Assembly (NCBI RefSeq): GCF_003334315.1
Contig: NZ_QOWR01000043.1
Origin: Escherichia coli
GTDB taxonomy: Bacteria > Pseudomonadota > Gammaproteobacteria > Enterobacterales > Enterobacteriaceae
Length of the DNA stretch: 42,323 bases
Strand: one strand, 5' to 3'
In this document: in pieces, positions 5,197 through 27,457 of the stretch
How positions within the stretch are numbered: position 1 is the stretch's first letter
Layout of the letters: each line of letters opens with the position of its first letter
Made by a program: the position numbers and the translations under genes
The notes under the pieces: model-generated
The model's database searches: none
Told to the model about the DNA's origin: nothing
Seen by the model: the letters and a program-made list of their open reading frames with translations, nothing else

Positions 5197-5326
5197 AGTG
5201 TGGTAGAATATCAGCTTACTATTGCTTTACGAAAGCGTATCCGGTGAAATAAAGTCAACCTTTAGTTGGTTAATGTTACACCAACAACGAAACCAACACG
5301 CCAGGCTTATTCCTGTGGAGTTATAT

Positions 5327-5656
5327 ATGAGCGATAAAATTATTCACCTGACTGACGACAGTTTTGACACGGATGTACTCAAAGCGGACGGGGCGATCCT
5401 CGTCGATTTCTGGGCAGAGTGGTGCGGTCCGTGCAAAATGATCGCCCCGATTCTGGATGAAATCGCTGACGAATATCAGGGCAAACTGACCGTTGCAAAA
5501 CTGAACATCGATCAAAACCCTGGCACTGCGCCGAAATATGGCATCCGTGGTATCCCGACTCTGCTGCTGTTCAAAAACGGTGAAGTGGCGGCAACCAAAG
5601 TGGGTGCACTGTCTAAAGGTCAGTTGAAAGAGTTCCTCGACGCTAACCTGGCGTAA
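5327..5656 (+). CDS. trxA: Thioredoxin 1, 109 aa
   Basis: ORF 5222..5656; canonical start [18 protein letters not shown] at ATG 5327; WCGPC active site present. Confidence 0.97.
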
Positions 5657-21940: not shown

Positions 21941-22017
<77 letters not shown>

Positions 22018-22074
22018 TTTAGTCCCGGCGCTTGAGCTGCGGTGGTAGTAATACCGCGTAACAAGATTTGTAGT

Positions 22075-22151
22075 GGTGGCTATAGCTCAGTTGGTAGAGC
22101 CCTGGATTGTGATTCCAGTTGTCGTGGGTTCGAATCCCATTAGCCACCCCA
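22075..22151 (+). tRNA. hisR: tRNA-His (anticodon GUG), with extra 5' G(-1)
   Basis: ggtggctatagctcagttggtagagccctggattgtgattccag...ggttcgaatcccattagccacccca. Confidence 0.95.
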
Positions 22152-22171
22152 TTATTAGAAGTTGTGACAAT

Positions 22172-22258
22172 GCGAAGGTGGCGGAATTGGTAGACGCGCT
22201 AGCTTCAGGTGTTAGTGTCCTTACGGACGTGGGGGTTCAAGTCCCCCCCCTCGCACCA
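22172..22258 (+). tRNA. leuT: tRNA-Leu (anticodon CAG), class II with long variable arm
   Basis: gcgaaggtggcggaattggtagacgcgctagcttcaggtgttag...gggggttcaagtcccccccctcgcacca. Confidence 0.95.
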
Positions 22259-22300
22259 CGACTTTAAAGAATTGAACTAAAAATTCAAAAAGCAGTATTT

Positions 22301-22377
22301 CGGCGAGTAGCGCAGCTTGGTAGCGCAACTGGTTTGGGACCAGTGGGTCGGAGGTTCGAATCCTCTCTCGCCGACCA
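22301..22377 (+). tRNA. proM: tRNA-Pro (anticodon UGG)
   Basis: cggcgagtagcgcagcttggtagcgcaactggtttgggaccag...ggttcgaatcctctctcgccgacca. Confidence 0.95.
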
Positions 22378-23926: not shown

Positions 23927-25582
23927 TTAGTCAGATTTAATCTGCGCGCGTGGTGGATATTTTTTCAGGATCTCCATATACGCGTGCATTTCGGTCTGTA
24001 GCGGTACACCCATCGGAATATGGCGCACGCCGATGGAGTCGCTTTCCTGCGGATCGGTGTAGAGGTTAAACACCGACGATCCCGCCGTTTGCATTACTGT
24101 GCCGGTGAATCCACCCTGATATCCGCTCTGGGTATAAGCGTAAGGTTGCTGAATCAGGACGTGATACTTGAACTCATCCATACGCACAGCAGCGAGTTTA
24201 CCGTTGAGGAAGTAGTGCTCGGCCTTACGGTTAGACTGACCATTTGTTCCCAGGAAGAAGGATGTCTGGTCCACACCATCGATAAAGGTGGTTTTCGGCA
24301 CTAAATTCGCCACTTTCGCTCCAGGATGCCCTGCCAGATCCAGCGCGGTAGGGAAGAGATCTGCCAGATCGACAATACCGTCAGATTTACGCGGTTGGAT
24401 CATCCCTTTCCAGTAAACGAAAGTCGGTACGCGAACGCCGCCTTCCCAGGTCGAACCTTTCGCACCACGGAACGGGGTGCGTCCGTGCGGCGGTACTTCG
24501 GCTTCCGGTCCGTTATCGGAGGTAAAGACGATCAGCGTGTTATCAAGCTGACCGTTTTTCTCCAGTGTTTTATACAGATTAGCGAACACATCGTTCATCT
24601 CCACCATGCAGTCGCCATACGAGGTGCGTGCCGGAGAGCTACCCGCATATTTAGCGTTCGGGTAGTTATCGAAGTGACAGCCGCGAGTGCCGTAATAGAG
24701 GAAGAAAGGCTTATCGCTCTTCGCCATCTTGTCGAGGAACTTAACGCCATATTCCATCCAGCGTTGATCCAGATCTTCCATATATTTCGGCGTAATGTCG
24801 GCAATGGCCTGTTGTTCGCCGCCGCGCACTGCATGAACATCATCTTTGCTGAACGGTAATTGCTTGATGTATTCAGAATGGTCCGGACTCAGGGCCACTT
24901 CCGGATTGACGTGAACGTCGCGCCATTCGGTGTACATATCAGACACCGAGTTAAAGCCACGGAAATCATCAAAGCCAACGTTCTGCGGCTGCGACTCTTT
25001 GTTTTCCCCCATATGCCATTTCCCGATAGCCTGGGTGACGTAACCTTGGTCGTGCAGCAATTGCGGCAGGGTGGTTAACCCTTGCAGACCTCCCGGTTGC
25101 CCGTACATTGGCGGCATCAGAATGCCGTGGTGGATGGAGTATTGTCCGGTGAGAATGGTGGCGCGGGTTGGGGAAGAGCTTGGTTGAGAATACGCCGACG
25201 TTAAAATCAGCCCCTGGCTGGCAACTGCATCGATATCTGGTGTAGGGTTACCCACCGCCACGCCGCCACCGTTAAAACCGACGTCCATCCAGCCCACATC
25301 GTCCAGCAGGAAGATAACCACATTGGGCTTCTTACCGGTTTTTTTCTCAAGTTCTGCCAGCTTCTGCTGGGTTTCTTTATCCTGCGCCGGATGCTGCATT
25401 ACTGGCATCATGTTGTCGGCAATAGTGGTCGCCGGTTTAACCAGATACTGGTTTGGGTGATCGTATCCGGCAAAGCCTTTGCGTGCGGTGGCAGTTGACG
25501 GGGTATCTGCTGCGCTGGCCATGAGAGGAAGAGCGGCGGCGACAGCAACAACAAGACGTTTGGGTGAAAACGAAATTTCCAT
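23927..25582 (-). CDS. aslA: Arylsulfatase-like protein AslA, 551 aa, with N-terminal signal peptide
   Basis: ORF 23927..25582 minus; sulfatase signature S-x-P-x-R ([11 protein letters not shown]); hydrophobic signal sequence ending ASAADTP. Confidence 0.93.
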
Positions 25583-26006
25583 GCAAAATGCTCCGGTTTC
25601 ATGTCATCAAAATGATGACGTAATTAAGCATTGATAATTGAGATCCCTCTCCCTGACAGGATGATTACATAAATAATAGTGACAAAAATAAATTATTTAT
25701 TTATCCAGAAAATGAATTGGAAAATCAGGAGAGCGTTTTCAATCCTACCTCTGGCGCAGTTGATATGTAAGGCAGGTTTATTATATCGCGTTGATTATTG
25801 ATGCTGTTTTTAGTTTTAACGGCAATTAATATATGTGTTATTAATTGAATGAATTTTATCATTCATAATAAGTATGTGTAGGATCAAGCTCAGGTTAAAT
25901 ATTCACTCAGGAAGTTATTACTCAGGAAGCAAAGAGGATTACAGAATTATCTCATAACAAGTGTTAAGGGATGTTATTTCCCGATTCTCTGTGGCATAAT
26001 AAACGA

Positions 26007-26203
26007 GTAGATGCTCATTCCATCTCTTATGTTCGCCTTAGTGCCTCATAAACTCCGGAATGACGCAGAGCCGTTTACGGTGCTTATCGTCCACTGACAG
26101 ATGTCGCTTATGCCTCATCAGACACCATGGACACAACGTTGAGTGAAGCACCCACTTGTTGTCATACAGACCTGTTTTAACGCCTGCTCCGTAATAAGAG
26201 CAG
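26007..26203 (+). ncRNA. glmZ: Small regulatory RNA GlmZ (activator of glmS translation); ends approximate
   Basis: ORF-free stretch beginning gtagatgctcattccatctcttatgttcgcc, preceded by a cataat -10 (25995..26000) and ending in terminator gcctgctccgtaataagagcaggc + T7; matches the GlmZ sequence as I recall it, in the aslA-hemY intergenic region. Confidence 0.8.
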
Positions 26204-26260
26204 GCGTTTTTTTATGTGTCAGGAAGGCCCCGGAGGTGCTTGCCCCCGGGTGAGAAGGAA

Positions 26261-27457
26261 CTACTGTGGTGGGTTGTTCTGCAACGTTAACATCAAACCG
26301 TCGTGACGCATCGCTGCAGCTTCTTCCGGCTTGTGCAGTCTGTCCAGCGCGTCGGCAAGCCATGCGTAATCGTAGGCGTCCGGACGTTGTTTCAGCGCTG
26401 CGCGGAAGGCGAGCGATGCTTCCTGCCATTCTCCGTGCTTCATCAGTGACTGGCCCAGTGTGCTCCACAACAGCGGGCGATCGCCGACGTTTTTGATCTG
26501 CTGGCGCAGCACTTTTTCCAGCTGTTCCGGATTGTTGGTTTTCAGTCGAGGAATCGGCAGCAGTAGGCGATCGTCATACTGGCGTTTCAGGCCGTCGATG
26601 ATAATTTGCTGGGCAGTATCATGATCGTCACATTCAATAAGATGTTCCGCCATTGCCACCTGCAACGCTACCTGATGACGCGTTTTCCGGCTTTGGTTTT
26701 TCCACCAGTTACGCAAGCCTTCGCTACCGTTATCGGCACGCGCCTGATCCATCAGGCCAATCCATGCCTGTTGTTCCAGCATTGCACGATGTTCTTCATC
26801 GCCAACGTGGGCTTTCGCCATTGATGGGATGATATCCAGCAGCGAACTCCATGCACCAGTGCGGATATACGCCTGTTCCGCCAGACGTAATACTTCCGGA
26901 TGGCGTGGCGTAACTTCCAGCAGCTTATCCACGCCGTGGCGTGCAGCATGGTTTTCATTACGGGCCAGTTGCAGACGTACACGGGTGATTTCTACCGGAA
27001 TTGTGTCGTTGCCGGCCAGCTCCGCTGCGCGTTCCAGATGTTGGTTGGCGCGTGCTTCATCACCGCGTTGTTGCGCGGCTTCGGCAGCCAGCAGATAGTT
27101 CACCACCGGTTGTTCAGCGTGATCGGCATTTTTCGCCATCAGCTTTTCAACTTGCTGATAATCGCCTTCCGCTAGTTTCAGCAGCGCCTGTTCGGTCTGC
27201 TTACGGGCACGGCGACGCTTACGTCCGACAAACCACCCACGGGTGTGTGCGCCTGTGCGGAAGATCCGCCGCAGTAGCCACTCAATGGCAAACAGCACTA
27301 CCATCGCCAGAATCAAAATAATCGCCAGGCCAGTGACGCTGGTTTCGATATTGTAGTTGTCGGTCTGAATCAATACGTACCCCTGATGACCGGCAATCAT
27401 CGGGCCAACCACGATCCCCGCAATCAGCAAAACAAAGAGCAATAGCACTTTTAGCAT
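26261..27457 (-). CDS. hemY: HemY protein (TPR-containing inner membrane protein), 398 aa
   Basis: ORF 26261..27457 minus; N-terminal TM segments; last gene of hemCDXY. Confidence 0.93.
   Translation of the reverse strand: MLKVLLLFVLLIAGIVVGPMIAGHQGYVLIQTDNYNIETSVTGLAIILILAMVVLFAIEWLLRRIFRTGAHTRGWFVGRKRRRARKQTEQALLKLAEGDYQQVEKLMAKNADHAEQPVVNYLLAAEAAQQRGDEARANQHLERAAELAGNDTIPVEITRVRLQLARNENHAARHGVDKLLEVTPRHPEVLRLAEQAYIRTGAWSSLLDIIPSMAKAHVGDEEHRAMLEQQAWIGLMDQARADNGSEGLRNWWKNQSRKTRHQVALQVAMAEHLIECDDHDTAQQIIIDGLKRQYDDRLLLPIPRLKTNNPEQLEKVLRQQIKNVGDRPLLWSTLGQSLMKHGEWQEASLAFRAALKQRPDAYDYAWLADALDRLHKPEEAAAMRHDGLMLTLQNNPPQ

Follow-up and report, generated by a model that had tools for sequence, protein, structure and literature searches.

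The glmZ small RNA gene in the aslA–hemY intergenic region of an Escherichia coli contig: boundaries, structure and predicted pairing with glmS

The DNA analyzed here, termed the window, is a stretch of 42,323 nt from contig NZ_QOWR01000043.1 of the Escherichia coli genome assembly GCF_003334315.1. aslA, which encodes a putative sulfatase, is found at positions 23927..25582 on the minus strand, and hemY is at positions 26261..27457, also on the minus strand, with a score of 828.8 bits to the NF008017 HemY equivalog. hemX comes after hemY. The small RNA gene glmZ is situated between aslA and hemY and has an orientation opposite to both; aslA is its divergent neighbor upstream and hemY its convergent neighbor downstream. 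The gene order aslA / glmZ / hemY-hemX, as shown by the window genes, the family matches and a comparison with E. coli K-12 MG1655, represents the orthologous glmZ position, and the aslA–hemY interval is the described synteny of glmZ (PMC4152352).

A cmscan search of the entire window against Rfam 15 shows a match to RF00083 (GlmZ_SraJ) at positions 26007..26213 of the plus strand (218.4 bits, E-value = 2.2e-56; the gathering score is 60). The match encompasses model positions 1–214 of 214, is not truncated, and is present at full length on the plus strand only. The original prediction, made from the DNA sequence alone, had assigned the locus to GlmZ and had named a covariance model search and an alignment with the annotated E. 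coli glmZ as ways of checking this. Both uphold the assignment: the score exceeds the gathering score, and the gene and its promoter are base-for-base the same as those of MG1655. A permissive Rfam rescan of the spacer gave only sub-threshold noise (SNORA68, 21.5 bits, and Thr_leader, 18.5 bits, on the terminator hairpin). All features of glmZ that can be examined computationally were found at this locus and no contradicting evidence was encountered; positions 26007..26213 (+) are almost certainly glmZ of E. coli (formerly sraJ/ryiA), whose RNA is the activator of glmS. Elsewhere in the window, the Rfam search displays a TrxA 5′ UTR thermometer at positions 5257–5356 (78.8 bits) and, at positions 21941–22374, four clustered tRNA genes, which the matching E. 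coli record annotates as Arg, His, Leu and Pro.

Between the start of aslA and the stop of hemY (window positions 25583–26262), 678 of 680 bases are the same as in MG1655 by alignment, and the 207-nt glmZ gene together with the whole 424-nt intergenic region upstream of it shows 100% identity. E. coli K-12 GlmZ (SraJ/RyiA; b4456) thus has the same sequence, neighbors, promoter and terminator as the gene in the window, with no difference inside the gene. Just two positions of the 680-nt spacer differ from MG1655, and both are 3′ of the terminator: 26218 (G vs. A) and 26245 (C vs. T). The substitution at 26245 changes a perfect CCGGAGG/CCTCCGG hairpin just past the hemY stop into a hairpin with an A.C mismatch.

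Every one of the 5426 complete E. coli genomes contains a 701-nt region that includes the gene, and the 207-nt gene is found with 99% or greater identity in 5425 of them; in the one remaining genome the 207-nt gene has no megablast match. This distribution indicates that the window is E. coli chromosome and that the gene is glmZ. In at least 15 genomes the 701-nt region is 100% identical to that of the window. Some genomes match the 207-nt gene in two places, and one match is to a record that is classed as a plasmid. In strain 720632, aslA is a 138-nt pseudogene fragment (positions 2346–2483 of locus L001), and the spacer and glmZ are still 100% identical to those of the window. Since the aslA fragment is found beside an intact glmZ in this strain, aslA appears to be dispensable in some lineages where glmZ has been kept.

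The primary transcript of glmZ is placed at positions 26007..26213 of the plus strand (207 nt), on the basis of the full RF00083 model, the MG1655 start and the published length. The MG1655 ncRNA feature glmZ (b4456, 3986432–3986603) corresponds to window positions 26007–26178 and starts at the base equivalent to 26007; thus the annotated MG1655 5′ end and the Rfam 5′ end meet at G26007. GlmZ has been described as a 207-nt primary transcript with a processed form of ~151 nt (PMC4152352). When 207 nt are counted from 26007, the last T of the T-run is reached at 26213, which is the exact 3′ end of the Rfam match. The original prediction had put the gene in the right place but had given its ends as 25995 and 26206; the RNA starts 12 nt later and finishes 7 nt later. 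The earlier start is incorrect because CATAAT, at 25995–26000, is the −10 hexamer and 25995 is its first base; the earlier end, 26206, is just short of the U tail. In MG1655, the RefSeq feature spans 172 nt: it stops before the terminator and falls 35 nt short of the 207-nt transcript. In the PGAP-annotated E. coli genomes that were examined, there is no feature over glmZ.

The promoter can be read from the sequence. The predicted element CATAAT in the original prediction is present at positions 25995..26000 of the plus strand, i.e. at −12 to −7, and represents the sigma-70 −10 hexamer of the glmZ promoter. It is preceded by a TG at 25992–25993, which makes an extended −10 (TGgCATAAT, at −15 to −7). 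A probable weak −35, ATGTTA, is placed at positions 25971..25976 (+); it has three of six matches to TTGACA and a spacer of 18 nt. The E. coli glmZ −35 motif is known to have three consensus bases (PMC3045617). A generic sigma-70 scan did not call the glmZ promoter because the −35 is weak. The three sites the scan did report (25638–25680 and 25880–25853; 2.3 expected) are at chance level and unrelated to glmZ. The consensus of GlrR sites is TGTC-N10-GACA. No sequence of this type, with up to one mismatch, is found at positions 25583–26006, and matches in the whole window are at chance level.

The promoter region of the window has the same sequence as the K-12 fragment assayed by others, who found that E. 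coli glmZ has one constitutive sigma-70 promoter which is rpoN-independent and to which GlrR does not bind; expression was lost upon mutation of the −10 motif, and sequence upstream of −40 was dispensable (PMC3045617). The locus appears to carry a single sigma-70 promoter of this E. coli type, with no GlrR upstream activating sites. In Salmonella and Yersinia, glmZ belongs to the same RNA family and has the same target as in E. coli, but is driven by sigma-54 promoters with GlrR and IHF sites, which have been lost in E. coli (PMC3045617).

The AT-rich aslA–glmZ spacer also displays a tandem 15-nt direct repeat, TATTCACTCAGGAAG / TTATTACTCAGGAAG, at window positions 25900–25929 (−107 to −78 relative to the glmZ +1). 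This repeat might concern aslA instead of glmZ, since glmZ does not need the sequence upstream of −40 in the published truncations. In strain C9 (NZ_CP010129.1), an IS1 element is present in the spacer (locus L004, 640–1407) with a 9-bp duplication of window positions 25930–25938. The insertion point, at −77 to −69 of glmZ, is directly after the tandem repeat and leaves both the gene and its core promoter intact. In NZ_OY754409.1 and NZ_CM194533.1, the region is likewise matched in two pieces, with an IS1 annotated.

The RNA has three stem-loops. Stem-loop I (SL1), nt 1–66, is at positions 26007..26072 (+) and is found in the Rfam consensus structure as well as in the MFE and centroid folds; it is bound by a RapZ CTD dimer in the cryoEM structure (PMC9841335). 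The central stem-loop II (SL2), nt 73–146, at positions 26079..26152 (+), is given by the Rfam structure and has the closing helix GGUGCUU/AAGCACC. This stem-loop is decisive for RapZ/RNase E cleavage (PMC4737144; PMC9841335) and contacts both RapZ and RNase E (PMC9841335). Between SL2 and the terminator is a single-stranded region, nt 147–172, at positions 26153..26178 (+). It contains the glmS pairing boxes and is a determinant of Hfq binding (PMC4737144).

The intrinsic terminator (SL3) with its U7 tail is at positions 26179..26213 (+), with the hairpin at 26179–26208 and the U7 at 26207–26213. Its arms, at 26179–26189 and 26198–26208, are 11 nt each and 100% complementary, with a loop of 8 nt. 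It is the only terminator-like site at positions 25580–26300, where 0.3 are expected from shuffles. The strong plus-strand terminator with a T7 that had been predicted is therefore present, with an 11-bp stem and the T7 at 26207–26213. Hfq binding requires the oligo(U) tail (PMC4737144), which is a second point of contact for this protein, at its proximal face.

Folding of the plus strand gives z = −3.3 relative to shuffled sequences and reproduces SL1, SL2 and the terminator; folding of the minus strand gives z = −3.7. With these two values, the folding energy cannot choose the strand, and it is the covariance model, together with the T-run of the terminator and the annotation, that selects the plus strand. 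The terminator hairpin is fully symmetrical and is located 53 nt past the hemY stop; on the minus strand (26208–26179) it is followed by TTAAAACAGG instead of a T-run. The glmZ terminator hairpin may contribute weakly to ending hemCDXY transcripts.

The pairing of GlmZ with glmS was analyzed using the glmU–glmS spacer of MG1655 as the target, with the duplex limited to GlmZ's single-stranded region and the final 60 nt of the leader. Two boxes are predicted to pair: GlmZ nt 150–157, UUGUUGUC (window positions 26156–26163), with glmS positions −29 to −22, and GlmZ nt 163–169, GACCUGU (window positions 26169–26175), with glmS positions −40 to −34. The two-box duplex has an energy of −19.2 kcal/mol, which was equalled by 14 of 2000 shuffles, a modest statistic when taken alone. 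The glmS pairing site that characterizes the GlmZ activator is thus predicted to be present in this RNA; this represents computed complementarity, as distinct from a functional test. A whole-molecule RNAduplex calculation with the 207-nt GlmZ and the 201-nt glmU–glmS spacer was discarded: the duplex ran from end to end, had no meaning and was less favorable than those of shuffles.

In the predicted fold of the glmS leader by itself, the start-codon region is paired with positions −43 to −34, and the SD has a small hairpin beside it. This predicted fold agrees with the published model, in which GlmZ opens a stem-loop that masks the SD (PMC4152352). The part of the original prediction which states that the RNA activates glmS translation is correct.

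The identity, boundaries, structure-model match, glmS complementarity and conservation described here were computed, and the action of Hfq, RapZ and RNase E and the promoter activity are taken from the literature on the identical K-12 sequence. Put together, these suggest the following scheme. A constitutive sigma-70 promoter would give rise to an RNA of 207 nt, in which two 5′ stem-loops are followed by a single-stranded region and then by a Rho-independent terminator. Hfq would bind the single-stranded region and the U tail, where it is reported to protect GlmZ against cleavage (PMC4737144), and GlmZ nt ~150–169 would pair with the glmS leader at −40 to −22. This pairing would open the stem-loop that masks the ribosome-binding site, allowing the synthesis of GlmS (GlcN6P synthase), an enzyme for a cell-wall precursor.

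With GlcN6P in ample supply, the adaptor RapZ would bind stem-loops I and II and present GlmZ to RNase E; in the published structure, a RapZ tetramer on SLI and SLII presents the single-stranded region to the nuclease (PMC9841335). RNase E would then cut the single-stranded region at ~nt 151 (near window position 26157) and the pairing site would be removed. The product described for K-12 is the form of ~151 nt, which is without the pairing nucleotides (PMC4152352). When GlcN6P is scarce, the paralog GlmY would sequester RapZ and GlmZ would be spared; sequestration at low GlcN6P has been reported (PMC4152352; PMC7073468).

The original prediction had GlmZ itself titrating RapZ. This does not hold for full-length GlmZ, which is the substrate that RapZ hands to RNase E (PMC4152352, PMC9841335), the decoy being GlmY. 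It holds only for the processed fragment of ~151 nt, which provides a secondary feedback by competing for RapZ (PMC6602413).

A locus whose RNA titrates RapZ would fit GlmY, the RapZ decoy, and the relationship between the two RNAs is close. GlmY (SroF/Tke1; RF00128) is homologous to GlmZ, is in the same Rfam clan (CL00011) and has a similar SL1/SL2 architecture that is bound by RapZ (PMC4737144; PMC9841335). The alignment of GlmY and GlmZ shows 76% column identity over SL1 and SL2, and at this site cmscan dropped one lower-scoring overlap from the same clan in favor of RF00083. The model scores nevertheless separate the two genes: RF00083 is the best model for the gene in the window (218 bits), and RF00128 is the best model (146 bits) for K-12 glmY beside glrK, which was used as a control. 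SL1 and SL2 are conserved in the alignment and the sequences diverge after SL2, where GlmY differs in having neither the glmS pairing boxes (UUGUUGUC and GACCUGU) nor a long terminator with an accessible U tail. The equivalent segment of GlmY gives −13.3 kcal/mol, at another place on the glmS leader, compared with −19.2 kcal/mol for GlmZ. The aslA–hemY synteny, moreover, belongs to glmZ (PMC4152352). In view of the model scores, the synteny and the glmS pairing site found here, it is extremely improbable that the gene is glmY, and this identity was rejected in favor of glmZ.

The region also contains open reading frames, and one of these could be a real protein gene with the RNA signal incidental to it. 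A mechanical ORF list has a 116-aa open reading frame with a GTG start at positions 26118..26468 (−), and, as the only others of 30 aa or more that touch the glmZ RNA, one of 37 aa at positions 26038..26151 (−) and one of 36 aa at positions 26143..26253 (+). The 116-aa sequence has no NCBIfam match, and neither MG1655 nor the PGAP genomes have an annotated CDS at this place. Of its length, 208 nt lie over the 3′ end of hemY in a different frame, and its C-terminal part is antisense to the terminator hairpin and the single-stranded region of the structured RNA. Conservation of the region is explained by the covariance model match. The original prediction had called the 116-aa open reading frame spurious, and we likewise judge that it is not a gene; that it or either of the small open reading frames encodes a real protein is very unlikely. 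A further alternative is that the region is only an untranslated or terminator region of hemCDXY or aslA with no independent transcript. The hairpin could indeed also stop convergent transcription, because it is symmetrical and is 53 nt past the hemY stop. Against this, there is a functional promoter with mutational support at the −35/−10 of 26007 (PMC3045617), the plus strand carries both the T7 run and the only full-length Rfam match, and published promoter fusions and Northern data on the identical K-12 sequence contradict a purely untranslated region. The probability of this alternative is close to negligible, and the reading of the locus as an independently transcribed glmZ gene is retained.

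There is a small chance of something more at this locus. It is improbable that either the 424-nt AT-rich spacer, with its repeat beside a recurrent IS1 insertion point, contains an as yet undescribed element that regulates aslA or controls glmZ under particular conditions, or the symmetrical glmZ terminator doubles as the hemCDXY terminator and couples both units.

GlmZ has been characterized since 2001–2008, as far as a cryoEM structure with RapZ and RNase E. The locus in the window is the reference GlmZ itself and not a variant; it is already known, and no new biology comes from it. The practical value of the finding is in annotation: PGAP is silent at this position, RefSeq gives the MG1655 gene a length of 172 nt, and a naive ORF track puts a spurious 116-aa open reading frame over glmZ.
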